A stretch of 64,000 bases of DNA. Source: a virus. Both the position numbers and the translations under genes were made by a program. The stretch is taken from positions 10,679 through 74,678 of IMG/VR virus record IMGVR_UViG_3300027743_000002; one strand, given 5' to 3'. Positions 1,446-60,000 of the stretch are shown here, piece by piece (positions within the stretch are counted from its first letter, which is position 1; every line of letters starts with the position of its first letter). Under the pieces are notes generated by a model. It did not search any database. It had not been told where the DNA came from and saw nothing but the letters and a program-made list of their open reading frames with translations.

Positions 1446-4064
1446 TTGAACGATTCCCGTGAGTCCCCTAACTTTACCCCGCTCTCGGTCGCCACGGCTC
1501 GTGGTGCTCAGAATTTCGCGCCTGCCAAACCCATCCATGATGTTCTTCAATCTCGTCAGCTAAGTGAAAAGCGCACACCCTCAAAACTTGAAGCAGGCAT
1601 TAAAGAACTTTACTCCCACTATCTGAATCAAGAAAACGCTGCATGGAACTCAATGATTGGGATGGCCCAATTAGTTTCCTTGTTCAGAAAAGGCCAACAA
1701 TTACTACAACGCCGACCCTTTGGTGCCCCAGGATACTACGTTAGACCACTCACCGACAACGATGACACGGTAATGAAGCAGACAGCGATGAACCTGATGG
1801 GGTTCTTTTCGCAAGCATGTGAATCGAAAGTCATTGCTTCTAATCCGAACGTGAACATGCGCCCTGGGGATGATACACCGGAAGCCATTGCTGCCGCGCA
1901 AGCGTGTCGTCCCGTCGTGGATTACTACGAAACTGAGTGGTACACCGTCCCTTTTGTGCGCCGTGAAGCAATTCGCTTTTTGACTGATGGAGTAGTGATT
2001 CATCAGGTGCGGTGGAATCCGTTTCTTGGGGGCTACGAAGTCAATGAGCGAGAAGTTACGCATGAAGATGTGACGATTGACGAAGGTGGTGGTCAATGTC
2101 TTGATTGCCAATTTGAAGGCTCGCACGAAGCGTTTCAAGGCGAGTATTCAGCGCAATGTCCTGAGTGTGAAAGTCCGGCGGTAGATGTAAGAGACCCGAT
2201 AAAGCAGAAGTTGGCAAGGATCGGGATGGGCCAATCGAAGCCCGTAGGTGAGCCGGAAATCGTTTCATCTGCTTTCGCGTCGTGGCGTTGGGACTTGACG
2301 AAGGATTTGGAGTTATCGACGTGGGCGATTAAGCGGCAGTACATCGGACAAGGCGCAATCAAGTTGATGCTTGGGGATGTGACTATCCCTGATTCACAGA
2401 GTTCCGAATCTCACGGTCTGGACGTGATGTACGCCCTCGCTTATTCAGGTCAGGCGTTCGCTGGAACTAGTAGTTCTCAGTACACAAACACATCGTTAGT
2501 TGATAAGAAGCCGACGTTAGCAGAGTTTTGGTTAAGCCCTGAAGACCAAGCCATGATTGAGACTGAAGGGGGCGAGACAATCTGCGGGCAGACGCTTCCC
2601 AAAGGTCGCTTAAGTGAATTCTTTGGTGGCAAACCAATCTGTGTAGTGGGCTTGAACGATATGTCCCTGATTGTCGGGATGTATGCGAACGAGTCTCAGC
2701 AAAAGGAAGTAGTCACCGCTCAGTGGTTCATGGATGCGGATTCAGGTGCAGGGCGCGGCATGGAAGATACCGCAGCCGTACAGCGCAGATTCAACGCAGT
2801 CGATGGTCAGATTTATCAAGGGCTTGCAACTACAGCAACTCCCGCTGTGTTTACGGATATGTCGTTGATTAAGGAAGATCAGGGAAGATACTTGTTTGCC
2901 CCAGGTCATAACATTGATATTTCACTGGCGTTGCTACCGCCGAACATGAAGTTGCAGGATGCGATTTATGTTGGAAATCCTGGGGCGGTGAGTCAACAGT
3001 TTGTTCAGTACGGCTCTCAGTTCTTGCGCGAGATGGCGCAGATTTCCAGTCTTGTCACAGAGTTCACGAATGGCTTGATTGGAGTGGATAACCGCACTGC
3101 AACAGGTGCACAGATTACGGCACAGTTAGCGAACTCGTTGTATGGCCCAATGCTGGCAAGTAAAGGTCAGATGAGAGTTGATATTGCGAAGAAGATCGTT
3201 CGGTTGGTGGCGGAACATGACTTCTCAGGCAGGTACTATCCAGGCAAAGGCGCAGCCAAGGGCAGAATGGTTAGTGGGCAGGATTTGAAGTCGAAAGTGG
3301 TCTTTGAGTTAGTGCCTAACAGCGAGTTGCCTGTAAGTCCCTTTACTGAGCAGACAGACATTAGAGTGTTTGGAGAGTCTTTTGGGGGACTTTTAGGTGC
3401 AGCTCAGTTACAAGCACAGTTTCCACGCTTCTTTAAGGCGGTAGCAAAGCCGTTTAACATTCAATTTGATGATGAGAGTGATGACGATGTGAGCACGTTG
3501 TGTCTCAAGCGACTTGAAAGTATGAGAATGAACCTTGAGTCAGGTGTGACTGACCCTGCGGTGTTAGTGCAGATGGTCAAGCCTCCCGTGAGTAAGGTAG
3601 AGCCGAAACATGCTGAGAAAGCGGAATGGTACAGCGACTATTTAGACTTGGAGAGAGGTCAAACTGCCCCGTTGGAATTACGTGAAGCGATTGAGCAAAT
3701 GTATTGGTCTCATCTAAATCTCCAAGTTGAGAAGTCAATGCCTCAATCCTTTAATCAAGGTTTAATCGGTGCGGCGGGTGCTGCGCCTGCTGCGATTGGT
3801 TCAGCCTTACTGCAAGGTCAAGAGCAGCAAGCAGAACCAGCGGTTGAGGACAAGAGTGAAGAATTGGAAGCGAAAGTTGCGATTGAGGAAATGAAGACAA
3901 AGAAAGACCTCGAACTCAAGCAGATGGAGACGGAGACGCAAAAACAAGTCGCGTTAATTCAGGGACAGAGTGCCCTTGCTAACACAAAACTTGCGGGTGA
4001 GAATCAGTTGAAGGTGGCTAAAGCCAAGCCAAAGGTAAAACCCGCAGCAAGGAAGTCGGCATAG
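1446..4064 (+). CDS. portal protein (P22-like) with Zn-ribbon insertion and coiled-coil C-terminus
   Basis: 872 aa; portal-like segments (NVNMRPGDDTPEAIAAA, RTATGAQI), CLDC...CPEC insert, Q/E/K-rich C-terminal tail; first large gene of the virion module. Confidence 0.75.
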   Translation: MNDSRESPNFTPLSVATARGAQNFAPAKPIHDVLQSRQLSEKRTPSKLEAGIKELYSHYLNQENAAWNSMIGMAQLVSLFRKGQQLLQRRPFGAPGYYVRPLTDNDDTVMKQTAMNLMGFFSQACESKVIASNPNVNMRPGDDTPEAIAAAQACRPVVDYYETEWYTVPFVRREAIRFLTDGVVIHQVRWNPFLGGYEVNEREVTHEDVTIDEGGGQCLDCQFEGSHEAFQGEYSAQCPECESPAVDVRDPIKQKLARIGMGQSKPVGEPEIVSSAFASWRWDLTKDLELSTWAIKRQYIGQGAIKLMLGDVTIPDSQSSESHGLDVMYALAYSGQAFAGTSSSQYTNTSLVDKKPTLAEFWLSPEDQAMIETEGGETICGQTLPKGRLSEFFGGKPICVVGLNDMSLIVGMYANESQQKEVVTAQWFMDADSGAGRGMEDTAAVQRRFNAVDGQIYQGLATTATPAVFTDMSLIKEDQGRYLFAPGHNIDISLALLPPNMKLQDAIYVGNPGAVSQQFVQYGSQFLREMAQISSLVTEFTNGLIGVDNRTATGAQITAQLANSLYGPMLASKGQMRVDIAKKIVRLVAEHDFSGRYYPGKGAAKGRMVSGQDLKSKVVFELVPNSELPVSPFTEQTDIRVFGESFGGLLGAAQLQAQFPRFFKAVAKPFNIQFDDESDDDVSTLCLKRLESMRMNLESGVTDPAVLVQMVKPPVSKVEPKHAEKAEWYSDYLDLERGQTAPLELREAIEQMYWSHLNLQVEKSMPQSFNQGLIGAAGAAPAAIGSALLQGQEQQAEPAVEDKSEELEAKVAIEEMKTKKDLELKQMETETQKQVALIQGQSALANTKLAGENQLKVAKAKPKVKPAARKSA

Positions 4065-38243: not shown

Positions 38244-39110
38244 TTACTTCTCCTTTTCGGCTGCAAGGGTAATGGACTCAAGGTTCTTTCCACAGAAGGG
38301 GCAGAATGAGCTACCCGCATAGGGCGGGTTTAGATTATTTCTTCCGCACTCAGTCGCCCAAAACTCCAACACTCGGTTGCGTGGCCCACAGTCACCGTCA
38401 CATTCATGTTCACCAAGCTGAGTCCAGGTACACCGCTTCATTGCTTCTCCTGCACCAGCGGGAGCGGCTGCTAGGTGGCGGGAGAGAATCGCTTCTGCGT
38501 TACGCGCTAAGTTTCCAATCTTCAACAACGCTTCATACCGCACCTGCGGGTCGGGGTTTTCCTCGCACGAATAGCAGGCAAAGTCATTGATACGCTGTAA
38601 GGCTTTCAGTACCTCTGCGGGAGCGTCTACTGTAGTTGCTGGTACAGGGGGAAGGGTGGCGAGTGCGCGCTGAGTGTTATCGAGTTTTTGCCGAGCTTCC
38701 CATTCAGGGATTTCAACGTAGCTATAACCATCCGTGTAAGTTGGCCCAATGGTTCCGGCCTTAGTTTTAATGGCATTGGCGAGCCGAAAGGAAAGCCACG
38801 CCTCGAAATCCCGTAAAGTCGATAACGGCGAGTCTTCTCTACTAATCACGTCTCCTGCTACTGGGGAGCGGGCGAGAAACGATTGCTCTAACTCCCACGC
38901 GACACAGGCGGCGCGGCGCAAGATGTTTAGCAAGTGCGTGTCGCAGCGGAAGCCTCTCGATTCTTCGTCCATGAAGTACCTCAGACCGCGAAGAAACTCG
39001 ACAAGTGAACAATCAAGGCGTCCTATCGCGCACGTTCCTGCCATAACCGACTCGACTGTTTCCCGCTCCGGTGCTGGTTGGTTATCTGTATGAGATTCTT
39101 TGGCTTTCAT
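38244..39110 (-). CDS. mosaic hypothetical protein whose start appears supplied by the TnpB element
   Basis: 288 aa; C-terminal FCPFCG; probable original start MTTDN left at 40234. Confidence 0.6.
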   Translation of the reverse strand: MKAKESHTDNQPAPERETVESVMAGTCAIGRLDCSLVEFLRGLRYFMDEESRGFRCDTHLLNILRRAACVAWELEQSFLARSPVAGDVISREDSPLSTLRDFEAWLSFRLANAIKTKAGTIGPTYTDGYSYVEIPEWEARQKLDNTQRALATLPPVPATTVDAPAEVLKALQRINDFACYSCEENPDPQVRYEALLKIGNLARNAEAILSRHLAAAPAGAGEAMKRCTWTQLGEHECDGDCGPRNRVLEFWATECGRNNLNPPYAGSSFCPFCGKNLESITLAAEKEK

Positions 39111-40229
39111 AAATTAAAGATTTCAGATGGCAATCGCTTGCCTCTCGTGGCTTCCTCCAAGCCCGACAATGAGCGTGTTAATCGCGGCATTGATGTCGCG
39201 GTCGTGCTCAGTTCCACATTGAGCGCACTCCCACTCTCTTACCTTCAAGCCTGCCAGTCCGGTAGGCCCAGATAAGCACCCACAAGCCGAACAAGTCTTG
39301 GTGGAATTTCTGGAATCAACTTCGACGTAAACCCCAAGGCCGTCTGTACGACGCTTGCTCTTGTAGGAAAGCATTTGTCGAAGTTGAGCGTGTCCTGAAC
39401 TAGCTACACTCTTACCGAAGCGTTTTGCTATTGATTTGTGTCTGTCTGCGCTAAAGGCAATGAGCTGATTCTCGGCAATCAATCTGCGCGACAGTTTGTG
39501 ATTACGATCTTTACGTTGGTTCGCTATGCGCTCTTGAAGTCGAGATGTGAACTTCCTGTTACGCCCACGCTGCGACTGAGACAAACGCTTAGCGGACGCT
39601 TCCAGTTCTCGCGGATGCTCTACGACCTCACCGTCTGACAGCGTGAGCAGCGAACTAAAGCCTGGATCAATTCCAACGCAGCCATCGGCGGTTGCAAAAA
39701 TAGCGTCACCGTCTGCCTTGATGAATAAACAGGCGTACCACCCCGATGCCCTTTTCACCAAACGAAATTGACTAATCTGCCCTTCGGGTATCTCTTGCTT
39801 GTGAAAGCGAATCCGGCCTAACCGGACAACGCTCAATCGGCCATCTATAACCTTCACCCCGTGAGCAAACGGAATCGAGTTAAACCTATTCCGTCGCCCC
39901 TTCAGTCGGGGCTTACGTGAAACCTTCTTGAAGCAACGCCGCCAAGATGTGTGGGCAGACCAGAGAGTTCCGCAGATCGCGTCTTGCGCTACGTCCATCT
40001 TTGGCCCATGACTGTTTAGCAGGTTTCTAAAGTCCAGCGACGAGTAGTAAATACAGTCCCGCGAATCGTGCTCAATCTTCTTGATGGCCCAGTTCCAGAC
40101 CGAACCCAAGTGACGTAGCCAATGGCCTAGTCGTCGCTCTTGGCGTGGGGTGGGTCTAAGCTTTAACTGAATCTGAATCATGGTGCGTGATTATCTCAAA
40201 AAGATTTTCGTTCCTGATGGTTATCTGTA
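39079..40229 (-). mobile_element. TnpB-only insertion bounded by a 12-bp direct repeat
   Basis: TGGTTATCTGTA at 39079-39090 and 40218-40229; no tnpA. Confidence 0.7.
39123..40181 (-). CDS. tnpB: TnpB-family RNA-guided nuclease homolog
   Basis: QLKLRPT N-terminus, VGIDPG (RuvC-I), CSACG..CAQCG Zn finger, HDRDINAAIN (RuvC-III); RuvC-II region reads LIAFSAD. Confidence 0.92.
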   Translation of the reverse strand: MIQIQLKLRPTPRQERRLGHWLRHLGSVWNWAIKKIEHDSRDCIYYSSLDFRNLLNSHGPKMDVAQDAICGTLWSAHTSWRRCFKKVSRKPRLKGRRNRFNSIPFAHGVKVIDGRLSVVRLGRIRFHKQEIPEGQISQFRLVKRASGWYACLFIKADGDAIFATADGCVGIDPGFSSLLTLSDGEVVEHPRELEASAKRLSQSQRGRNRKFTSRLQERIANQRKDRNHKLSRRLIAENQLIAFSADRHKSIAKRFGKSVASSGHAQLRQMLSYKSKRRTDGLGVYVEVDSRNSTKTCSACGCLSGPTGLAGLKVREWECAQCGTEHDRDINAAINTLIVGLGGSHERQAIAI

Positions 40230-40230
40230 G

Positions 40231-40404
40231 TCATTTAGTAGGTGTCCTTTCACCGACTGGCAACTTAGGACGCGAATCAACGCGTTTGTACGGCTTTCGT
40301 CTGCGATTTTGGCGACAAAAGTCTTGGGTGTGCCGAATTACCATCAAGCGATTATCGCTATCGTAAACCTCTCCACATTTCCAACACTTCACCTGTTCAC
40401 TCAT
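40231..40404 (-). CDS. small Cys-containing basic protein (57 aa, not in ORF track)
   Basis: MSEQVKCWKCGEVYDSDNRLMVIRHTQDFCRQ...TPTK; its stop overlaps the ATG at 40234. Confidence 0.55.
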   Translation of the reverse strand: MSEQVKCWKCGEVYDSDNRLMVIRHTQDFCRQNRRRKPYKRVDSRPKLPVGERTPTK

Positions 40405-41582: not shown

Positions 41583-41798
41583 TCAGCCTAAGTCCTTTAA
41601 CGCGGACTGAAATTTATCCACAAGGGTTGCGTTCCAATCCCATCGTCCGGTTTCCAGCGATGAGAGCCGTGCCTTGCTGATGCCCATGCGGGCGGCAACC
41701 TCAGTCAGCGTTTTCTTGGCCCGCTCCCGCTTGGCCCTGAGTTCTTGTGGACAAGGAAGCGAGCCTTTGCCCCCGCAGTATTTACAAGTAATTCTCAT
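41583..41798 (-). CDS. XRE-family HTH protein
   Basis: LRAKRERAKKTLTEVAARMGISKARLSSLETG. Confidence 0.8.
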   Translation of the reverse strand: MRITCKYCGGKGSLPCPQELRAKRERAKKTLTEVAARMGISKARLSSLETGRWDWNATLVDKFQSALKDLG

Positions 41799-42346: not shown

Positions 42347-43404
42347 TCACCAACATTTCCAAGCGAACGTGCGCTCTGCTTTTTTCCAGTATGGAAGTAT
42401 CAACAGCGGGAGTTCCTTGAATTCAACTTGCTGCTCTCGTTCTGCTTCACGGTCATACACGTCTTGTTTGGCTCGTAGCAGAGAGAGTTGATAGTCATGC
42501 TCATAGCGGGCTAAGAGGCTGTGACTTTGTAGATCGTCTGTGCCCCTGGGAGTGGCGCGTTTATTTAGTGGCTCACCACACTCACGGCAGTTGGCTTCAT
42601 TGGGGGTGGGGACGTGACAGTCCTTGCATAGCACTAGCATCGGGTTTCTTCTCCTTTGTTGCGGCATCTTTCTTCCAAGCGAGCGCGTAGTACATCTCCG
42701 TAGCGTCTTTGGCCGACGACCTTGTTCTCGCCCAATTCATGCTCATGCAAGGCGATTAGCTGAGTCGTGGCGCGACGGACGTTGGTAGGGGAGCCAAAAC
42801 AGACTCGCGGGCCTACGTCGATGCGGGCTAAGTAGATACTCTGACCACAGACGCGACAGATGTAGGGGTAGTGTGATTTACGGTGTGTCATAGAGGTCTC
42901 ACTTCCGCAGGGAGTCCACAACATTTCGGCCACTTGAGCGCGTACTTGCTCATCTGCTCCGGTGTCTTAGTGCTGGTACGGAAACAGATCGGGCAACTAA
43001 GAACTGCGCCTTTGGGCCACGCTAGTTTCTCAATGTTCTTGAGAGCCTTAGCAGATAAAGCAATGGTCTTTAATGATTCAGGGTTGTTGTTCATATCTTT
43101 AGTCAACACGTAACTGTCCGGTTGCCCGTGCGTAATCATCAATCAGCCTAAGAGTGCTTGTCACAGCAAACGTAACCGCTGCGTGAAAAGTTGGATCGTA
43201 TTCCCACAACCAATGAAATCGGTTTTGTTGGCCGTCTGGTGCTTGTGGCCCACTTGGGTAACACGCTGCGATTCCTAACCCTATGGCGTAAATCAAATAG
43301 CCTTCTAACTCGCGGCGGTTGGTCGGTGCTTCCGCTCGTTGCTTATCTCGTGCTGCGTTTACTAAGGCTTGCGCGGCTTTTAGATCAAATGGCTCATTGC
43401 TCAT
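42347..43404 (-). CDS. four small hypothetical genes, several with Cys pairs
   Basis: Overlapping ORFs ending at 42347, 42634, 42888 and 43099. Confidence 0.5.
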
Positions 43405-43739
43405 CTTCCATACCCCGCTATCTCTCGCGCTTCAGCACTCTCAGCGAGCCTTTGATACTCCGCAAGTTGATGGTCTACTTTCAAGGGGTTGAATGGTTTC
43501 CATTTCCCCGACCGCTGCCGATAGCCCCAATGCTTCAACACGAAGGCCCAAAGAGTTAAGTCCTTCACGGTCATGTTAATGTCGTAGCGTCTGCCCGCGT
43601 TCAAATTTAAGCGGAAGGTGTCCCGCCAGATTTCCACAGCCTCACTTGAACCGCAGAGGTCGTTAAGGATTTCTTGTTCTTCGTTACGTTGTTCTTGGAG
43701 TAGTGATGTTTGCATTTCGTCGCTGCCTTTCTGCTTCAT
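43401..43739 (-). CDS. hypothetical protein, possibly an isolated replication-initiator C-terminal-like domain
   Basis: AVEIWRDTF..VKDLTLW..VL..W..FNP..V...L..Y helical pattern; family assignment is tentative. Confidence 0.4.
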   Translation of the reverse strand: MKQKGSDEMQTSLLQEQRNEEQEILNDLCGSSEAVEIWRDTFRLNLNAGRRYDINMTVKDLTLWAFVLKHWGYRQRSGKWKPFNPLKVDHQLAEYQRLAESAEAREIAGYGR

Positions 43740-43939
43740 CGTTTACGTGGTTTCGGCCCCGTTTTTGTATTGCGGTCTTTCATCTTCTGAAACTGCATTG
43801 GGGTGAACGTCATGGCTCGCCCAATCCAGCTTGGCTTAATTCGCAACTGCTTGGCGATTTCTCTTACGCGCTTCTGCGTTAGCCCAAGACTGTGAGCAAT
43901 CATCTGCGTGGTTAAAGACACTTCGGTATTATAGGACAT
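43736..43939 (-). CDS. excisionase/MerR-like HTH protein
   Basis: LTTQMIAHSLGLTQKRVR..IKPSWIGR; paralog of 57275. Confidence 0.65.
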   Translation of the reverse strand: MSYNTEVSLTTQMIAHSLGLTQKRVREIAKQLRIKPSWIGRAMTFTPMQFQKMKDRNTKTGPKPRKR

Positions 43940-44008
43940 TGGCGCACCTAATCCAAGAGGTTATTTAGAATTACCTTGCGTTGAGTTCGAGAAACTTTGT
44001 AAAATGCG

Positions 44009-44585
44009 GGGATTGAAAAGCAGTAGGGCCGAAATGTAGGTTTATTTACACTCGGCCCCAAGATACCGCCAACGGCAGCGACGCTGTAGCGATGTCCCAA
44101 TCCTAGCACGACACGGGCATCGCTACAAGGTTCTTTTAAGTCCCGTGAGCACCTAATATGGCAATGACTAAAATTGCCAGCGTAAAAATCACGGACAAAG
44201 TTGAAGGCGGCAACTGATTCACTAGCTGAAAAGCAAGCGAGAAACAAAGCGTCTCGCAGAAGGGCAGCGCAGTCAGAACAACCACTTCCTATGCTGATTA
44301 AATTCTTCATAGTCTTGCTAGGCAATCGCCGACGAACCGTGAACCTAGTCCCAAACGTGCAGAGACGCGAGCAATCGTGTCTCTATGGTAAAGAAGGTGG
44401 TGTACTCGCACGGTGCATCTTCAGGGTAAATTCTGACGACGTGAATCGCAAAGAATAAGGCTCCCGTTAAGCAACTACAGTTACCTCTCCTAACTAATCC
44501 CGCGCACAAGGGATAAGGGTTCGGTGCGCTCTCTTGAACTGACTGCCCGCCCTTCTTAACGGAGGAGCGGGTAGTCTTGTTTTAT
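44009..44585 (+). ncRNA. candidate large structured non-coding RNA (~570 nt)
   Basis: TTGCGT-18 bp-TAAAAT upstream; at least ten stems, with G-U pairs on the + strand; terminal hairpin plus U-rich tract. Confidence 0.6.
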
Positions 44586-44588
44586 GCG

Positions 44589-45143
44589 TTAGGTAAATTG
44601 CCCATCTCGCGGCATTTTAACTTCTAAGCCTTCGGACGTTAGTTGAGTAACCATTGACATAGCAAATTCGGTTTCAACAAATCGCTCGGCGTTTTCACGG
44701 TTCCAGCCACCGTCCCCGCGATATTGATCCCAAAAGTCTCCATTGGTCACGAGGTAGTCAACTATCTCGGCTTTTGTGGCAAAGGCTGGTGTAACAGGCG
44801 TACCCTCAGAAACCGTTTCGTACATCTGAAACCAAGTGGCTTCTTCTTCAGTCCACTTTGGACGGTAACCATCTCGCTCTGGTGGTGAGCCGTTCCATTC
44901 CCAATAGTAGCGGGTTTCACCGTCGCCGTATTCAGCGCGATCCGGATCGTCTCCGGCCTCCCATGCTACAAGCCCCGCGATCCATTCTTCTGCGGTTGAC
45001 TCATAATCTCGGTCATAGAGCGGGCGAAGACACATACCTCCATTTTTCTTAGCGTCGTCACATCCTCCAGTCCACGGAGAATGTTCGCACTGTTGGCGGG
45101 GATGTTCCCAATTCGGTATAACCTTGCGGATTTCTCGTCCCAT
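44589..45143 (-). CDS. hypothetical phage protein
   Basis: RBS aggagg; MGREIRKV..WEHP..FQMYETVSEGTPVTP. Confidence 0.75.
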   Translation of the reverse strand: MGREIRKVIPNWEHPRQQCEHSPWTGGCDDAKKNGGMCLRPLYDRDYESTAEEWIAGLVAWEAGDDPDRAEYGDGETRYYWEWNGSPPERDGYRPKWTEEEATWFQMYETVSEGTPVTPAFATKAEIVDYLVTNGDFWDQYRGDGGWNRENAERFVETEFAMSMVTQLTSEGLEVKMPRDGQFT

Positions 45144-45210
45144 AACTACCTCCTAATTTGTGATACATAAAGGTTTAACGGAGAGCGGGCTGTCGAGTCT
45201 CTAGGGGATT

Positions 45211-45275
45211 GCGCGGGGTTGAGTTCTCACCCCAACTAGCGACCGCGAGGTCATTAACGAGACAGTCTCCCGCGC
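45211..45275 (-). ncRNA. tRNA-like cloverleaf element (not a canonical tRNA)
   Basis: GCGCGGG/CCCGCGC closing stem, two internal hairpins, GUUGGG-GUGAGAA-CUCAAC arm. Confidence 0.4.
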
Positions 45276-45282
45276 AAACTTG

Positions 45283-45984
45283 TCAAAACGGAGCATCCTC
45301 CAAATCATCAGGTGGCTCACTTAAAGCCGGATCGGGAGCGTCACGATATGGATCATTATCTTCTAAGCCTTTATTTCCGCTAGGGTCGGTATCTACTTGC
45401 TGGTTTCTCAGCGGTCTCAGGGCTTGTGCCGCGTCGATAGTAGGAATGACGACATCTAGCATTCGCTGACACAGAAAGTCTTCCTGTGCCCCGTAATCCC
45501 ACTTGCCGCTTGCCCGCTGAATTGGTTCCGGCAAGTCGTGAGGGTTCTCACGGGTGTATTTCTGAGGAACCGAGACTCCATCCTGTTGCACGTTGAACGC
45601 GGTCGTGTCAGTCTTACGATCTGTCCAAGCAGAGAAACGAACAGGCTTACGGAAGTCCACATTTTCTGCCACCTTCATCCAGCGGGAGTTGATGCGTGAG
45701 TCAAACGCAATATCAAGAGAACAGGGCGTACCGTCGGCATCAATGTGAATATTCCACCCCCTGAATTTCCGACCATTGTATTCACGGTCGTACCACTCCA
45801 TTTTGGTGACGTAGCCGGAAACGGCTTTGTAGGGCTTGATCCACTTGGTGTACTCCGTACCGTCACGGAGAGTCCCGTCAATCCGCTTGTATCCATCGCG
45901 TTCGGTCTTGCTGGTTTGGCATATTTGGCCGTGAGAAATCTTAAGAAAGATCGCTCCAGTATCGTCGTAAGTTTCGAGTCCCAT
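45283..45984 (-). CDS. putative single-stranded DNA-binding protein
   Basis: Aromatic beta-rich body, acidic tail ending DDLEDAPF, next to an exonuclease gene. Confidence 0.6.
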   Translation of the reverse strand: MGLETYDDTGAIFLKISHGQICQTSKTERDGYKRIDGTLRDGTEYTKWIKPYKAVSGYVTKMEWYDREYNGRKFRGWNIHIDADGTPCSLDIAFDSRINSRWMKVAENVDFRKPVRFSAWTDRKTDTTAFNVQQDGVSVPQKYTRENPHDLPEPIQRASGKWDYGAQEDFLCQRMLDVVIPTIDAAQALRPLRNQQVDTDPSGNKGLEDNDPYRDAPDPALSEPPDDLEDAPF

Positions 45985-46017
45985 TTGAGTTCCTTTCGTT
46001 GGTTAAGGCGAGCAGTC

Positions 46018-46815
46018 TTACTTAGTCTCGCTTGGGTTAAAGGGAATAGTCTGAGCTGGTAGTTTTTGGCATTTATCCAAGAACCCGCAGTAAAGACACG
46101 GCCATTTCTTCGACTTCGGATCAAGGATAACCTCACCCTCAAATTCTCGTGCGGGTAATTGGTCGTTCTCCACGCTCCGAACTATCCATCTCAGACGTTC
46201 AATTTCAGCTTGTATTTTATCATCTAAATCCTTGATTTTGAACCGGAATTCAGCGAAAATAGGCTCATCCTTTGCCGCTGTTTTACGAGCGTAAATGATG
46301 TGTAGATACGTGGCCCCAAGAGCCTTTGCGGAAATTCCAACTTGTAAAATATTTTCCGGCTTGGCTCCTTCAGCCACCATGTCTTTCTTGTTCCATTGAC
46401 CGTTTGATTTCAACTTCTTTCCGGTGATTAGTTTGAACGCAAAGTCAGAGACAGACTTGATTTCGCCGCAGACCAATTCACCGTCTTCGGCGTGGTAGAG
46501 CAAGTCGGCGCGAACGGTAATGAAGTCTTCGTACGCGCCACTGATTTCTTTCTCGCCGTGGGTGGCCGCGAGCATAGTGGCTTGGATAATGTCGTGAACA
46601 TGATCACCAAGCGAGAAGTTAAAGAGCGCGTCTCCGGTAATTGGGTTGGACGCTTCGACGCCCATAACTCGAAAGGCAATCTGTCGAGCGCACGCTCCTG
46701 CTGATGATGCGTTGGCATGGAGTTTATCAGCGAGCAAAGAGGGCGCACGTTCTTCTGCGGCTTTCTTGGCTTCCAGATGTTTGAAAACTAAATCTTCAAT
46801 TTTCGGTAGGGTCAT
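46018..46815 (-). CDS. Cas4-like PD-(D/E)xK exonuclease
   Basis: ASSAGACARQ..GDHVHDIIQ..RADL..EIKS..Q..WPCLYCGFLDKC (Fe-S cysteines). Confidence 0.8.
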   Translation of the reverse strand: MTLPKIEDLVFKHLEAKKAAEERAPSLLADKLHANASSAGACARQIAFRVMGVEASNPITGDALFNFSLGDHVHDIIQATMLAATHGEKEISGAYEDFITVRADLLYHAEDGELVCGEIKSVSDFAFKLITGKKLKSNGQWNKKDMVAEGAKPENILQVGISAKALGATYLHIIYARKTAAKDEPIFAEFRFKIKDLDDKIQAEIERLRWIVRSVENDQLPAREFEGEVILDPKSKKWPCLYCGFLDKCQKLPAQTIPFNPSETK

Positions 46816-48360: not shown

Positions 48361-48942
48361 TTAGTATCGTCGTTCCCGCGTGTTGCGCTCACACCACGCA
48401 GACGTTCGACCGCCGACAGCCAATGACTTGCGGTATCGCTTCTTTAGCGCGGCTATCTCAGCCGCTTGGTCGCTATTCGGCACGTCCGGCCAAATGTCGA
48501 AGTAAACAAAGTGATACTTCTTGGCGGGCGGTTCCCATGTATGTACGTCAGCCTCAACAATGGTCAGTTTGGGATTGTCGTATAATGGCCCAATGAGCGC
48601 GATAACGTCAGCAGAACGCTCCAGCACTGTAACGCTGGCAACGTCAGACTGTTTCAGCAAAGGTTCAATGATTAACCCAAGACCTAAACCCGCAATCAAG
48701 ACGTGTCCGAAGGCTCTGTTCACAAAGTCTTGGTTGGTGTAGATTTCAAACTCCGCGTCAGTCATCCACAAACGCCCGTCGATGAACAAGCGCGTGTAAG
48801 TCTTGGCGGTGAGCGGTTGACCGTCTCTCGCCGCCCTCATGCGGGTTAGCATGTCGGGGGAATCGTGAACTACCTTTGCCGCGCCAAATGACGCCGCAGG
48901 GACTCGCTTATGTAAAGTTCCAGCTCTCATTGTTTTCTCCAA
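48361..48942 (-). CDS. spermidine-synthase-like SAM-dependent methyltransferase
   Basis: LWMTD..E; VLIAGLGLG; VTVLE; YFDIW. Confidence 0.75.
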   Translation of the reverse strand: MEKTMRAGTLHKRVPAASFGAAKVVHDSPDMLTRMRAARDGQPLTAKTYTRLFIDGRLWMTDAEFEIYTNQDFVNRAFGHVLIAGLGLGLIIEPLLKQSDVASVTVLERSADVIALIGPLYDNPKLTIVEADVHTWEPPAKKYHFVYFDIWPDVPNSDQAAEIAALKKRYRKSLAVGGRTSAWCERNTRERRY

Positions 48943-49829: not shown

Positions 49830-50045
49830 ATGTTCATCAGCGAAATCAAGATAGACGCAGGGAAGCTGAAGGGGGCACGCGGTTTACGCAAGCCTTCTGA
49901 GGTGGCGCGGGAGATCGGGATTACCCGTCAGCACTTGTGGCAAATAGAATCTGGACGGGCGAAACCTTCGGGAGAGATTCTAGCCAAGCTCTGCTGGCTC
50001 TACGGAAAGCCCATTCAGGAGTTCACTTCTAACGAGTCTAAGTGA
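49830..50045 (+). CDS. Cro/XRE HTH regulator, leaderless
   Basis: EVAREIGITRQHLWQIESGRAKPSGEIL; ATG 7 nt after the -10. Confidence 0.85.
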   Translation: MFISEIKIDAGKLKGARGLRKPSEVAREIGITRQHLWQIESGRAKPSGEILAKLCWLYGKPIQEFTSNESK

Positions 50046-50075: not shown

Positions 50076-52703
50076 ATGGATAAGACAGAGTTGTTGCGAT
50101 ACGAACTTGCGGGGAGTGATTGGTGGGTGTCGCTGATTTCGTGGGGTTGGGCGCAGACGCTCGTTGCTCGTTATTTCGCGTGGAAGATAAACCGAAAGTT
50201 CGCGGCATTGGAGAGAGTGCGGCAGCGATCCATCTTGGTCGGCGCGGCTATCCGGCGGGGAGTGGTAGTTCGCGGCATGAGCGATTCAGACATGGACTAT
50301 CTCAACTCAGCCATCCGGCGCGAGTGGAATACGCCAGAAGAAGACAAGGCGTGGAAACATCTATGAAACATCTACTAACACTAACTTCTATTCCTCTGTT
50401 GGTACTTTTAGTTTCGGTGGTGAATCTGATTACCCCAAAGGAGTGGGAATGAAGGCATTTGCTGACTTAGCCGATCTTCCAGAAGATGATCGAATTGCGA
50501 TCATTGGTAAAACCGCAGAGGGCGGGCAGCGAGTCGCATTTGTGGTTGAGGATCACGCTAAAGCTGATCGCTATGTTGAGAAGCTAACAAAACGATTTCG
50601 GGTGTCAGTCGCCAAGCGATTAAATGGGCCAGTTAAGAACACAATTAGCGTGATTGTTACGAGACGATCTGAAGCGAAGGAGAACCTATGAGCGGGAACG
50701 TAAAGGTCTGCACAACAAGTGGCGAGCCTGTCGATAAGGTGCGCGCCGAACAGACAGAAACCGAGGGTCAGCACAAAGCCTACTTAGTGCTCTGCGCCGA
50801 AGAACGGGAGAAAGGGTTTGTTCGGCCCTACCGTGATAGGTACAGACATGTGGGCCGTTCTATCTGTGGAAAGATGGCCGATAGTTCCCCGTTGCTTGGC
50901 GGGCCGCGTTCTATTTGTAGCGATGACTTCGAGCACGATGGCGAGCACGGCATACAAACCCGAACAGTTACCCAACCAGAGCACGCGCAAATAGAGAACA
51001 CTCACAGACTGGGCGGTTGCGGTTCTGTTACCACAATGGGTCGCGCCCTAAGTGAAACTTATGCACGTGACCCGAAGTTCTACGGCGCAACCTTTTGCTG
51101 TCACTGCAATCAGCATTTACCTGTGGCTGAATTTGTTTGGGACGTTGACGGCGAAGTGGTTGGTTCTTAGTTTCTCTGGTGGCCTTAAACCAGCAGAGAC
51201 GGAGATAGAAATGGGTGAGTCGGAACACTATAAGGAGATTCTGAAAGCCGCTAAGAGTGGCCGGATCGCCGCTTGGCTGGTCTACATGGTGATGTTGCTG
51301 CTTTTTATTGTTACGTGGGTTGGAATATCCACGATGGAGCAGCGAATAGTTGATCGACTAGACCGCATTGAAAGGAAACTGCCGTGACTAATCCAGAGGG
51401 GGAGCGGGAGAAACTGTTGAACTGCCCGTTTTGCGGATCGGCAGCGGGTAAGGCTTTTGTGCCGTCAAGTGATCCGCGAACAAACGGGCGCGGCGATCTG
51501 TGGATCATCGGTTGTCAAGATGCGGAGTGCGCCACTGGTTTCGTGTCGTCCAATATCGATGATTCAATCAAGCGTTGGAATGCACGATCAGACATGCAGG
51601 AGCAGCAGAAGTAAATGGAAACCAAACCAAAAACTGAGAGCGCAACGACTGTTCAATTCGTTGGGGGCTACGCAGATGGGCGTATCGTTGAGTTATTCGG
51701 GCCATTGCCTGACATGTATAGATGTCCCGTTCCTGACCGCACCAGAGGGTTCACGGCTCCCTTAGTTTTCGATCCAGCACGACTGCCGCAAGAGGATGAT
51801 TATGTACTTATTCCGCTATTTGGCAAGAAGTTCTACGTCGAAAGACGTTTACTGCAAATGGCGAACGACACAGCACGAACAACCGATAATCCCTTGATAG
51901 GACACTTGGCAGAACTAAAATGAAATGAAACGCAATCCCAATAACTCTCAACGCCTGGAAGAATCTCTCACAGTTGCTTGTCCGTACTGTCGCGCTAGGA
52001 TTGGAGAGTCATGTTGGGGAATCAGCAGTTTCAGCGGCAAGCCCGTAAAGAAACCACACGTGCCCCACAAGGGGAGGGTATTGGCTTTAGTAGCACAGAG
52101 GTTGAAGGAGAAGGAATGACATTGACGTTGTGGGTAATTTGGGTAGCTACGGCGATGGTGGCTGCAATTATGAATGTTTCCATTTGGGAGCGATATGGAA
52201 TGCGGATAGCCGCCCGTTCAGTCCTAGCAACCCTCTGTGGCCTCATTGCGGGTATTATCTGCATGACGTTGGAGGCGAAATGAGCAAGGAGCTAATTTCT
52301 CACACGCGCATCGTGAACGATTTAGAAATCTACGTTGATGATGAAGTTGCAGATGACGAGGTTGAGGTTGATTTCTTTCTTCCGCGCCATAAGCATCGAG
52401 TGACAGTTAAACTAAAAACCAAAGACGTACTACCTGAACTATGGGCGCGACTTCAGGAACAACCATGAACAGAAGAAGGTTTCTTGAACTACTAGCCTTA
52501 GCAAGTGCGGGGAGTGTGGAATGACTGACGTTAAGGAGCCACTTAAACAAGTTTGCCCGCGCTGTGAAACAACCTTCTGGAGTTATCGCCCGTGGCCGAG
52601 CTGCGGAGCGTGTCTGACTGAGAAAGAACACGATCATCTTATCGCTACTGCTCCGTTTCAACCCGTCCCTCTGCTTATCTGGCTACAACAACATCAGAAC
52701 TAA
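50076..52703 (+). CDS. cluster of small genes including a Cys/His-rich protein (50688-51170) and a Lar-like protein (51384-51614)
   Basis: Co-oriented overlapping ORFs; LLNCPFCG..C..C..IKRWNAR in 51384. Confidence 0.55.
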
Positions 52704-54146: not shown

Positions 54147-55254
54147 ATGACGATTTTACTAGACATCCCCGCAAAGGGAACGCTCCAATACTTACTGTCA
54201 GCCTTTCTCGGTGCATATAACCGCAGGTCAGACATAATGGAGCGAGCGGTCAGAGTAGACGAACGTATTCGAGCACAGATAGAGAAGCTAGACACGGCAG
54301 GTGAAGCCCTCAAGGAAACAGTAGAAAACAATCAACCGAACATAGGAGAATAAAATGGCAAATCAGGACATAACCGCACTCGAAACCGAAGTCTCTGAAA
54401 CAGTTGGCATCATGGAATCAGCGAAGGCTTTGATTGATGGATTTGCGGCACGACTCGCAGAAGCGGGCGTTGATCCGGCAAAGCTGGAAGCATTGAGAAC
54501 CGACCTTGACTCCCATTCAACAGCCCTAGCCGAGGCAGTTGCGAACAACGCTCCGTCTGTCTAACGACTTTTGCAGGGATTGGCGGCTTGCCACTTTTCG
54601 GAGACGATAGCCAGAACTAAACTTGGTACGTTCGATTCCTGCAAATACCTTCAACTAATGTCTGAAACTGTGCAGATAGCTTTAATAGTATCAATCGCCC
54701 CGACCGTAGCAGCGATAGCGGGTTTGATTGTCTCGTTCAGAAACACGCAGAAGCTAAACACGATGCACATTGACATTAACTCACGCCTTTCCGCAGCATT
54801 GAAAAGTGAGCGAGCGTTAGGAGTAGAAGAAGGCCGAAGATTTCAGACCGAAGACAACGACGTAAAAGCGTAAACAAGATTCACGGGACGTTTGGTGATC
54901 CGAAACGCAGTTACCGTTTAAAGAGAGCGGTAACAGCAAAAGATTAACCTGAAGAGAGCGTCCCGTGAGTAACTTAAAGCCCCAATGTTCAAAATCAACC
55001 TTGAAAGATTTGACGCTAGAGAACTTGGAGCGTTACTCGCTCTCTGTACTGCATGTGCAGTTGTCACGATAGCGATCATCGGCATGATCTTCAGACCACC
55101 ACAGCCAGAAGGTCGCGAGGCCGTTTATCACATAGTTAGTTCCCTGGTAGGACTTGCCGCAGGGTTATTAGGTGGTGGCGCAGCCGGATTTGCGCTCGCG
55201 TCCAAGAAAGAGCAAGCGAAGAAAGAGGAAGTCAATGGAACTGACGCTAAATAA
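54147..55254 (+). CDS. four small lysis-region genes (54147, 54355 coiled-coil, 54658 one TM, 54985 two TM)
   Basis: Co-oriented; hydrophobic segments in the last two. Confidence 0.55.
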
Positions 55255-57038: not shown

Positions 57039-60000
57039 TTAGAGCGTTTTTAAGCGAGCCAAAACAGCATCCACAAAGCGCATTCTCATTTCTGTTTGTT
57101 CGTCGCTTTCATCATCCCAAAAGAGATAGCAAGCCTTATCCCCTGTTTTAGTCTTCCAGCCCGCGTCAATAACGCCTAGGATCGCGCCACTAACCGCGCC
57201 GGATGAGTACACGCGATCCTTATTGCCCTCAAGAATGCTAATAACTGCGTCCAAGTCGTCAAGGATAGCGTGACTCATGTTGTTACCGCCTTTCTCGGTC
57301 TCCCTAAAGCCCTGGGATAGTTCCTTACCAGTTCAGCTTGTTTCTCAGTCAAGACAAAGACTCTCCCGATCTGTTTCGGTTTAATGTTCAAGAGTCTAAT
57401 CCTATTGGTTAGTTGTCGTTGTTTAACCTTTAGTTCAGCTTCTAGGTCTTTTGTTGTGATATAATTCATTCGTGTCCTTTCGGTGTAACTTGCTTATAAT
57501 TGCTCAGTAGTTCTTTGAATTACGCTCTTTGCTCCCCGTCGTCAGGTTCTTTCCATTCGTTGCAGTTGTCACAGTCAAAGCACTCGGTGTTGCCGTCGCT
57601 TGCATCGTGTCGTCCGCAAGGATGGTTGCAAGAGGCGCAACGAAGATCGCAGTCGGACGGATCGCCCCAATGTCGGCAAAACGGGCCGCTCTCGTAGTTT
57701 TCCCAGTCAGCCATTTTCAATTCACCTCCGTTCTGCCACTTCTTCTAGTACAGCGTCTAAGTCTGCTAGAATCTCGTTGTCGTCGTCACAGTCAGCGTTC
57801 TTTGAGTCCACGACGCCCTGAGAGACGTTTTCAGGTATTGGTTGAGGGTTAGTACCATTCAGAGCAGCCCGCGCTATATTGCCCGCGCAACGATGACCGT
57901 CAGCAACATCAACGCTGCTTACTTCGTAGGACTGATGCGGATGTTCGGCAATCTCGCGTAAGGCGGATTCTAGTTCACTAATACGTGCTAGTAGTTGCTC
58001 TCTGTCGTTTGGTTCTTTAGTGACAGCGGCGTGTCCGTCGCGGTGAAAGCCGCATCTCACACAGAATAATTGTGGTGCGCGGAAACTGTCGCAACCCTCA
58101 GTAATCGTAGTCATAACTACTCTTTCTCCTTCTTCGTCGTCATAGTTTAAGGTTACAAAGCGGCTGAATTGATAACCGTAGCAGCCGCTACTACGGACTT
58201 GAAGAACTAGAGCGATAGTTTACGTGTACCGCTAACACGACAAGCGGGATCAGACGCTCGCTTGTATTTCCTCAAGAGTTTGGCACTCATACTTGGCGCA
58301 ACACTCATCACAAGATTTACAGTGGTCACAAGTTGCTGGCTTAAAGCACGTCTCACATTCGTCGTCTTCGTCGTCGCTTTTTTCTTCCTCTTTGTCCACT
58401 TCTTCGATATAATGCTCAGCAATTTCATAGAAGTTGACTTCAGAGATAGCCGCACCAAGCAAGTCAGCGAACATGGAAGCGGATTGATTAGCCGAGTCCA
58501 GCATTTCTTGTGCGGACTCCTCAATTTGTTCTTTGATTAGCGCGGCCAACGTATTGATAGCGGCTTGCTCGCGTGTCTGATAGGATTCGGCTTCAGCTTC
58601 GTTGTAAACCTCTTGCGCGGCTTCCTGCCAATAGGCTTGCGATCCTTCGTCGTTATCGAGCCACAAGTTGACGTTCCAGGTTTCGTAATTAGTCCATCCG
58701 TTGTAAGTTTTATCGTTTGACATGAGCTGATCCTCTCATCTAGTTTTGTACTCTCTCAGAGTAAATAAAGGGTTTAGGCGTTCTTTTCGTTAAGGCTTGG
58801 ATGTCGGCGTAGAGAGTTTGCCAATGCTTTTGTCGAATGCGTTTAATTCGGCATTAACCTCTTTTTGAGCCTTTAGCGCGTCACGCTTATTGCCCGATGT
58901 CCACCGTTTTCAATACCCAATGCGAAGCGCGATATGGACGCAATCGCGTGCTTACTTCGATATTCCAGCCTCCGTTTTGGTCCTTGGATATTCTGGTGTC
59001 TGTTCGTTTACGCATTGAAATAACCTCGTGGTAAGATTGAAACGATCGCTTGAGGCTTTAATTCAGGCTTGAAGGTTGAGCTATTAGCCAACGACATATA
59101 CGGAGCATCCTTGTCGTTGGTGAGCCAAACAGTTTGCGGCAAGCGCGACGAATCAGCTTCGACATGAGCGAGCACTAAAGCATCGCAGTAAATCTCTTGT
59201 CGCTTAGTTCTCTTGCTTGAAAACCGCTTACCTGTTGTGAATTGCGTGTGCATGGTAACTATTTCTCCTTCTTTCAATTAGGGTTAGATAACTCAATAAG
59301 AAGCAATCGCGGTTAAGTGGTTAATTCCCAAGCGCGTTACATGCTGCGCTTGCGCTTTCGAAGCTGGTAAAGTCAAAGCCGAACCAGCATTTTTGTTTCG
59401 GATCGTACAAGTCGAATTTGCCGTCTGACTCGCATATCCAATAGCCGTTGACTTCTGTGCAATTACTTGGCATTTTGTCTCCTAGAAGTAGATGTGATCG
59501 TAGGCTAACAAGCCCTTGATTGTTTCTTCGTCGCCTTTGTCGAGTGCCTTAATCAAGTCAGTCATTTCATCGGAGACGAAGCACTGTGAACGACCTTTGG
59601 TAACATGTCCACGAGACGCCATGTTTTCAAGGACTTTGTAGGCTTTGGAGTAGCAATGCTGTGCTCCTGACCATTCTGGAAGGTTACTCATAAAATGATG
59701 CCTTTCTGCGATTGCTTTCTTATTCGGTTATCAAACAACTATTTAGCCTCATCAGTGACTGCATTACAGTCAGAACGTGGTATAATCACCACGTTTTCGG
59801 CTTAGACTAGATTGTGAATATGCGGCAAACGACGCGTAAAGTTCTTAGGATCACTCGAATCTCCACCGAGCCATTCTTGTTGCGGATGAGACATATAAGC
59901 CAATGATCCAAGCGACTGTTGAATGTCTACAATATCGCGGCCTAAGCGAAATGCTTCGTTATCCCAAGCGAGCGTGAACATCGCATCCAGTCGCGTTTTC

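Follow-up and report, generated by a model that had tools for sequence, protein, structure and literature searches.

The locus and its genome

The locus lies in an uncultured freshwater phage represented by a complete IMG/VR record of 74,678 bp with direct terminal repeats. We analyzed bases 10679 to 74678 of that record, a 64-kb stretch that is called the window below; coordinates are window positions unless stated otherwise. The phage appears to have no cultured relatives, since its 453-aa structural protein has no protein match in GenBank phages. Leftward (minus-strand) genes occupy the stretch between about 49.9 and 35.7 kb, and the recognizable ones are DNA related: a methyltransferase (48361-48942), a Cas4-like PD-(D/E)XK exonuclease (46018-46815), a SprT-like protein, and a Holliday-junction resolvase. 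The same strand encodes a 233-aa protein (45283-45984) with an Atlas model similar to a viral DUF669 cluster (TM 0.69). Given that its gene adjoins that of the exonuclease, this protein may be the single-strand DNA-binding or annealing partner of the enzyme. A six-frame search of the whole genome gave no match to RVT_1, DNA_pol_A, DnaB_C, or Prim-Pol, and ARAGORN found no tRNA or tmRNA across the 64-kb window.

The operon has one sizeable gap, of about 650 bp (43940-44588). On one side is a 67-aa helix-turn-helix gene (43736-43939, minus) with a weak Sigma70_r4 match; on the other is a 184-aa gene, here called gene A (44589-45143, minus). Gene A belongs to a widespread phage family of 1,684 homologues with conserved Cys and His residues. 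The family has no Pfam, PHROG, or NCBIfam name, and the AlphaFold model of the protein, in spite of a pLDDT of 91, matched no PDB fold in a Foldseek search at an E value of 0.001 or better. The gap holds a candidate structured noncoding RNA (ncRNA) of about 575 nt (44009-44585, plus), which diverges from the helix-turn-helix gene and on whose terminator gene A converges. Judged from the gene order, the RNA gene sits head-on within a leftward early operon of DNA-metabolism genes. The stretch is single copy in the genome and has no similarity to any other part of it.

Two further features of the region were seen in passing. A tnpB gene (39123-40181, minus; Pfam Cas12f1-like_TNB, E value of 3.7e-19, plus OrfB_IS605) is inserted in the operon. 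Its relatives are about 60% identical and come from several phyla. The element as a whole (39079-40234) is absent from the sister phage described below, where about 0.3 kb corresponds to about 1.3 kb of the window, an absence that fits a recent insertion. At 49850-50045 (plus) we recognized by eye the C-terminal part of an XRE-type helix-turn-helix protein (…GITRQHLWQIESG…); this reading ends just 5′ of a rightward gene at 50076, so the strand switch there would be more complex than a divergent promoter pair.

Boundaries and fold of the candidate RNA

An earlier note, made from the letters of the sequence, had proposed a large plus-strand structured RNA at this position, preceded by TTGCGT-18-TAAAAT and closed by a stem with a U-rich tract. 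Of these two boundaries, both on one strand, the 3′ one is a clear terminator and the promoter-like site is weak. At the 3′ end, a 15-bp bulged hairpin (44541-55/44561-76; pair probability [P] of 0.95 to 1.0), followed by UUGUUUUAU, makes up a predicted intrinsic terminator at 44541-44585 (plus; -28.5 kcal/mol, z of -6.0). Its minus-strand version is less stable (-19.8) and lacks the U tract. The closure that had been drawn there, gactgcccgc/gcgggtagtc with a U-rich tract, corresponds to this strong terminator, predicted for the plus strand only. The end of the U tract and the stop codon of the converging gene A are 3 nt apart. For transcripts coming the other way, the first minus-strand terminator-like signal past gene A is a weak hairpin at 44058-44015 that carries a U-run.

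At the 5′ end, the promoter-like TTGCGT-18-TAAAAT is where it had been placed (43976-44005, plus), with a predicted start near 44011 to 44013, but it is weak: it matches the sigma-70 consensus, which may not be that of the host, at five of six positions in the -10 element and three of six in the -35 element, and a promoter scanner did not list it. Between this site and the divergent helix-turn-helix gene, an imperfect palindrome, GGTTATT-TAG-AATTACC (43959-43975), was seen by eye and is a candidate operator.

The plus strand of 44009-44585 folds at -199.1 kcal/mol, compared with -166.3 ± 6.4 for 100 dinucleotide shuffles (z of -5.17; 0 of 100 as good). The minus strand of the same stretch reaches a z of only -3.05 despite a similar energy, because its shuffles fold better. 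Some individual hairpins are equally or more stable on the minus strand. By partition function, nearly every plus-strand helix has a mean pair probability of 0.6 to 1.0, the long-range ones included, whereas on the minus strand the long-range helices have a P of only 0.05 to 0.15. When the whole 74.7-kb genome was scanned in 240-nt segments, the plus-strand segments starting at 43963 and 44043, which cover the 5′ half of the RNA, ranked 3rd and 9th of 1,866. The same scan gave other strong folds at genome positions 3201-3520, before the window (residual z of -4.6), and on the plus strand of the window at 54843-55082 and 58043-58282 (residual z of -3.1 and -3.0).

All stems listed in the earlier note are present, most of them in the minimum-free-energy fold and with high pairing probability. 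The proposed pairing of the 5′ gggatt with aatccc corresponds to a closing helix, GGGAUUG/UAAUCCC (44009-15/44495-501; P of 0.75), that encloses a multibranched body and would be shortened if transcription starts at 44011 to 44013. Within the body, a first stem (44026-32/44052-58; P of 0.98) is followed by a 5′ domain (44066-44210). This contains a hairpin at 44085-44127 with a 13-bp stem (44085-97/44115-27; P of 0.96) and a nested hairpin at 44140-44196, in which 44145-48/44189-92 (P of 1.0) encloses 44159-65/44173-79 (P of 0.99), the latter forming the peripheral hairpin UGGCAAU-GACUAAA-AUUGCCA (44159-44179). A further stem (44237-42/44252-57; P of 0.97) precedes a central domain (44259-44422) that is closed by GAAGG/UCUUC and carries a stem at 44317-22/44344-49 (P of 0.87) and a 10-bp hairpin with a GCAA tetraloop (44361-70/44375-84; P of 0.98). 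Outside the closing helix are a 3′ hairpin, GCGCAC...GUGCGC (44502-44529; P of 0.82), and the terminator hairpin.

Positions 44102-44112, in the 17-nt loop of the 13-bp hairpin, are complementary at 10 of 11 positions to 44312-44322, 200 nt downstream. This complementarity could reflect a pseudoknot or an alternative pairing, and a natural variant, A44111G, would keep the possible 11-bp interaction as a G·U pair.

Coding potential of the gap

The gap contains internal open reading frames (ORFs), among them one of 125 aa on the minus strand and one of 85 aa on the plus strand. Codon log-odds, trained on the long genes of the phage, were 0.004, 0.034, and -0.004 for three internal ORFs, compared with 0.11 to 0.20 for most neighboring genes. 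Among 5.8 billion proteins, the minus-strand ORF had one near-identical match (P0121), a 120-aa gene call on a 1,131-bp NCBI contig that differs at one residue. When 1.84 billion representatives were searched in full with HMMER, the sole further matches (P0123 and P0124) were rejected as repeat-protein artifacts. No protein relatives were found for the plus-strand ORF, and Pfam and PHROGs gave nothing meaningful in the gap, the single match having an E value of 0.0046. These results, together with the frameshifting indels in natural variants described below, agree with the claim of the earlier note that the gap holds no credible ORF.

Natural variants of the RNA

Twenty-one public sequencing runs from 21 studies contain 8 to 47% of the 31-mers of the region. 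Most are labeled freshwater, and soil, root, groundwater, and marine labels also occur; no RNA run was listed among the sequencing runs that contain the stretch. Four of them (X2, X4, X5, and X12) were compared with the window over 43300-45300. The runs were selected by the RNA's own words, and the variants are single contigs at a depth of 2 to 4 from mixed strains. X4, X5, and X12 each gave one short RNA-only contig, and because of the mode of selection the missing flanks are uninformative.

The marine run X12 (44322-44537) differs from the window at four positions, all of them inside the GCAA hairpin (44361-44384). A44363G and A44365G turn A-U pairs into G·U pairs on the plus strand and would be C-A mismatches on the minus strand, and C44366U with G44379A forms a compensatory pair. 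The energy of the hairpin changes from -16.1 to -13.1 kcal/mol on the plus strand, where the fold is kept, and from -12.2 to -2.4 on the minus strand, where it collapses. Among random sets of four transitions, 1.3% fall entirely at paired positions with no pair broken, and 0.6% include a hit partner pair without a break. Read as codons of the plus-strand ORF, the X12 changes alter three, and all three are nonsynonymous.

The soil run X5 has a 24-nt deletion at 44157 that removes exactly the peripheral hairpin 44159-44179 without touching the stem around it; its contig is otherwise identical across 151 nt. In X2, the two arms of the upper terminator stem carry matched 1-nt deletions, at 44554 and 44564, and an A is inserted just 3′ of the GCAA hairpin. 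The 1-nt indels disrupt both of the longer ORFs. Two other changes, A44111G (X2 and X4) and G44180A (deduced from P0121), fall in unpaired stretches.

X2 also provides flanking sequence: its RNA pieces show 5 differences in 545 nt, compared with 31 in 437 nt for the flanking pieces. The 67-aa helix-turn-helix gene and the RNA co-occur in its contigs, one of which diverges from the window directly after 44584, at the end of the terminator. Conservation of the RNA is as strong at unpaired as at paired nucleotides, and at the unpaired ones it exceeds that of the flanking genes. The covariation-type signal, which comes from near-identical variants only, amounts to one compensatory pair, two G·U-creating changes, the clean loss of one hairpin, and one pair of deletions matched between the arms of a stem. 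These few differences among near-identical copies fit a plus-strand RNA fold.

The fold statistics, the terminator confined to the plus strand, the lack of a coding signal, and the structure-preserving variants all agree with the large structured plus-strand ncRNA that the earlier note had suggested. We consider it probable that 44009-44585 is a real ncRNA gene on this strand with a selected structure, an assessment that concerns the gene itself and not its mode of action.

Searches for homologues and relation to known RNA families

With blastn, nhmmer, and covariance models, no homologue of the RNA was found at 160 gene A loci from IMG/VR and JGI; the two models were built from single sequences, one from 44066-44210 (R1) and the other from 44259-44422 (R2). 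None was present in 35 whole viral records, and GenBank phages gave no DNA match. Of two exact words taken from the RNA, a 22-mer and a 25-mer, IMG/VR had neither, and GTDB genomes lacked the 25-mer; searches of this kind would miss relatives below about 90% identity. The closest relatives of gene A (P0001 and P0003 to P0005) are 77 to 79% identical in amino acid sequence, and the closest gene A locus fetched (L083, 69%) is not syntenic. In GenBank phages, gene A had one weak match, in a Burkholderia jumbo phage. IMG/VR searches with the 112-aa gene near the RNA, with P0004, and with the helix-turn-helix gene returned nothing useful. An 800-nt gap after gene A at another locus (L055) was considered as a counterpart and rejected, being unstructured (z of -0.64).

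Rfam 15 gave no match at gathering thresholds anywhere in the window, with models that include GOLLD, ROOL, OLE, HEARO, and raiA as well as group I and II introns, RNase P, 6S RNA, and tmRNA. Permissive searches gave only a chance tfoR match over 43700-44900 at E values up to 10 (12.3 bits against a threshold of 70) and no match over 35000-64000 at E values up to 1. GOLLD, ROOL, and OLE had been named in the earlier note as families to compare with; neither these nor any other family matched, even permissively.

GOLLD and ROOL form homo-oligomeric, RNA-only assemblies (nanocages). They are large "ornate" RNAs of phages and prophages, often found beside tRNA gene clusters, and ROOL env-120 has 659 nt (PMC12286853). 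Like them, the candidate is phage-borne and several hundred nucleotides long, with a dense multihelix fold, a gene of its own, and no known partner or function (PMC12286853). Unlike them, it has no tRNA neighbors in the window and is known from a single phage lineage; it also fails both Rfam models even at E values up to 10. Because it resembles GOLLD and ROOL in kind but fails their models and lacks the tRNA neighborhood, we class it as a new family. Most likely it belongs to no family described so far, being set apart by the Rfam models.

A catalogue of structured RNAs from viruses and phages (Fremin, Bhatt and Kyrpides 2023, PMC10690425) consists, by the description in its abstract, mostly of tRNA-like elements, terminators, and cis-regulatory leaders. 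Its candidates share with ours an intergenic position, the comparative-genomics type of evidence, and IMG/VR-like source data. Two specific assignments were rejected. An omega RNA or IS200-605 end of the TnpB element does not fit, since tnpB is on the minus strand 4 kb away and the RNA does not resemble that element. A retron or other reverse transcriptase-associated ncRNA does not fit either, since RVT_1 had no match in any of the six frames of the complete genome.

A sister phage with a different cassette

The closest relative found, G036 (IMGVR_UViG_3300012038_000181; 72.5 kb, 97% complete), was identified with an 872-aa structural protein as the query, in which the two phages are 95% identical in amino acid sequence. 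Their early regions are collinear, at 66 to 96% nucleotide identity, on both sides of a 3.3-kb cassette (42668-46017) that is replaced by unrelated DNA in G036 and contains the RNA gene. The cassette is bounded by a shared 106-aa gene (42347-42667) and by the exonuclease gene. In the window phage it comprises genes of 99, 101, 112, and 67 aa, the RNA, and the 184-aa and 233-aa genes. In G036 it is a densely coding block (L195:1134-4014, equivalent to G036:C1:26633-29513) that encodes an NGO0469-family replication initiator (L195:3012-3632; NCBIfam NF046043, E value of 4.7e-59, 199 bits against a cutoff of 75) and a primosomal/DUF1376-type protein (L195:1674-2519; phrog_3992, E value of 1.8e-26). 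Six-frame searches confirmed both replication families in G036 and found neither in the complete genome of the window phage. From this comparison, replication initiation looks to have been exchanged as a whole module between the two phages. Among the 160 gene A loci, just one has an NGO0469 initiator nearby. G036 has no homologue of the RNA, which is therefore not a core gene of the phage group.

Possible roles of the RNA

We tentatively favor a main role as a folded RNA acting in trans. Host RNA polymerase would start near 44011 from the weak sigma-70-like site, and the product would work chiefly as a folded particle that binds a protein or itself in the manner of GOLLD and ROOL. We lean toward this reading because the fold is closed and multidomain and because conservation does not distinguish unpaired from paired nucleotides, two features that simple antisense action does not need. 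In this reading, the RNA would also hinder read-through of the operon by transcriptional collision and duplex formation, since it is fully complementary to any read-through transcript from the upstream genes.

Another role, the targeting of ribosome binding sites through two loops resembling anti-Shine-Dalgarno sequences, had been put forward in the earlier note and is not supported here. The CCUCUCC loop is largely exposed as proposed (P unpaired of 0.73), but CUUCCU (44285-90) is mostly paired (P unpaired of 0.21), and the genome contains each of the corresponding words, GGAGAGG, AGGAGG, and GGAGG, less often than expected. Counted over both strands of the whole genome, AGGAGG reaches 13 occurrences where about 36 would be expected, and GGAGG 54 where about 146 would be, a scarcity of Shine-Dalgarno words that may bear on translation initiation in the host.

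Replication is the next most likely sphere after the trans-acting particle, a live alternative although we regard it as an unlikely one. Here the RNA would be a preprimer, an origin-activating transcript, or a copy-control countertranscript that takes the place of the protein initiator of the sister phage. The collinear G036 encodes its initiator and primosomal/DUF1376 protein in the very slot that holds the RNA, and both families, like RVT_1, DNA_pol_A, DnaB_C, and Prim-Pol, are absent from this complete genome. The surrounding operon, with its methyltransferase, Cas4-like exonuclease, DUF669-like protein, and Holliday-junction resolvase, would suit such a function. ColE1 RNA II offers the obvious parallel. 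It is a highly folded transcript of about 550 nt, a length close to that of the candidate, and both lie in a replicon region without a recognizable initiator protein; RNA II has a promoter of its own, and the candidate a weak promoter-like site. Unlike RNA II, however, the candidate ends at a strong terminator, which should free the RNA rather than leave a hybrid; it lacks a G-rich hybrid-forming tract, and it has no sequence similarity to anything in Rfam. An antisense promoter like that of RNA I was not found by the promoter scan. That terminator, a GC skew of -0.003, and the lack of runs of more than three G's argue against a ColE1-type primer or R-loop origin. Other results argue against a classical phage or plasmid origin: repeats are limited to trivial two-copy ones, no 30-mer of at least 80% AT occurs in 43900-44700, neither iterons nor DnaA boxes occur in the region or next to it, and the closest DnaA-box-like sites lie at 41614 and 41746. 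Any of the six uncharacterized cassette proteins could, moreover, be the initiator. The replication primer suggested in the earlier note thus gains indirectly from the replacement of the sister's initiator module, but the terminator and the lack of skew and of origin signals speak against it. That the RNA itself starts or licenses genome replication, following a swap of the protein-based initiation module, is more doubtful still.

A serious rival follows from the head-on position of the gene, which means that the RNA must collide and pair with read-through from gene A. It could then be purely a cis-antisense regulator or transcriptional insulator, similar to oop RNA or a countertranscript, with a fold that matters only for stability. 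Head-on transcription and RNA duplexes would cut or block read-through from gene A into the helix-turn-helix gene and beyond. The gene does face the operon, its terminator is unidirectional, and past gene A there is no minus-strand terminator before the weak hairpin at 44058-44015; a switch region is suggested by the divergent helix-turn-helix gene together with the palindrome at 43959-75. The arrangement predicted for the candidate is also that of lambda oop RNA and plasmid countertranscripts, promoter-to-terminator units that run against an early operon, are complementary to its transcript, and sit beside or within a replication region. The candidate is about seven times longer than oop. It overlaps no coding sequence, the gap offering no target of that kind, and unlike either type of RNA it has a closed multidomain fold with structure-preserving variation. 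A regulator of this kind needs neither 575 nt nor such a fold, and the conservation of unpaired nucleotides, above that of the flanking genes, also argues against it. We judge a purely antisense role unlikely.

It seems improbable that the stretch works only at the level of DNA and yields no functional RNA, whether as an origin, as a region bound by proteins, or through single-strand DNA hairpins such as priming signals. Its place in a replication-module slot and its several long perfect inverted repeats, which can fold on either strand, would be in keeping with such an element. Against this, iterons, an AT-rich tract, and DnaA boxes are lacking, the long-range helices are well defined only on the plus strand, and the A-to-G changes that keep G·U pairs on one strand, like the plus-strand terminator, point to RNA. 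An unrecognized or decayed protein-coding gene is very improbable: the 125-aa and 85-aa ORFs exist and a gene caller accepted the 120-aa form elsewhere, but codon scores are near zero, relatives are limited to one near-identical copy and two artifacts, and the variants carry frameshifting indels and, in X12, codon changes that are all nonsynonymous.

Implications

GOLLD and ROOL are still without a known job, and new families from other genomic settings add a handle on function. The RNA described here has useful traits for such work, being compact, apparently bounded by a promoter and a terminator, and nearly unchanged in runs labeled freshwater, soil, and marine. Its context in a replication slot is a distinctive and testable feature. 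Since the cassette replaces the initiator and primosomal genes of a near-identical sister, the two phages offer a direct experimental contrast and a testable hypothesis of RNA-dependent replication or its control. Should the RNA itself start or license replication, it would represent an RNA-centered origin in a tailed phage, unlike that of ColE1 in that the RNA is terminated and released. If instead it acts in trans on host machinery, it would be a candidate for a new RNA-protein or RNA-only particle.
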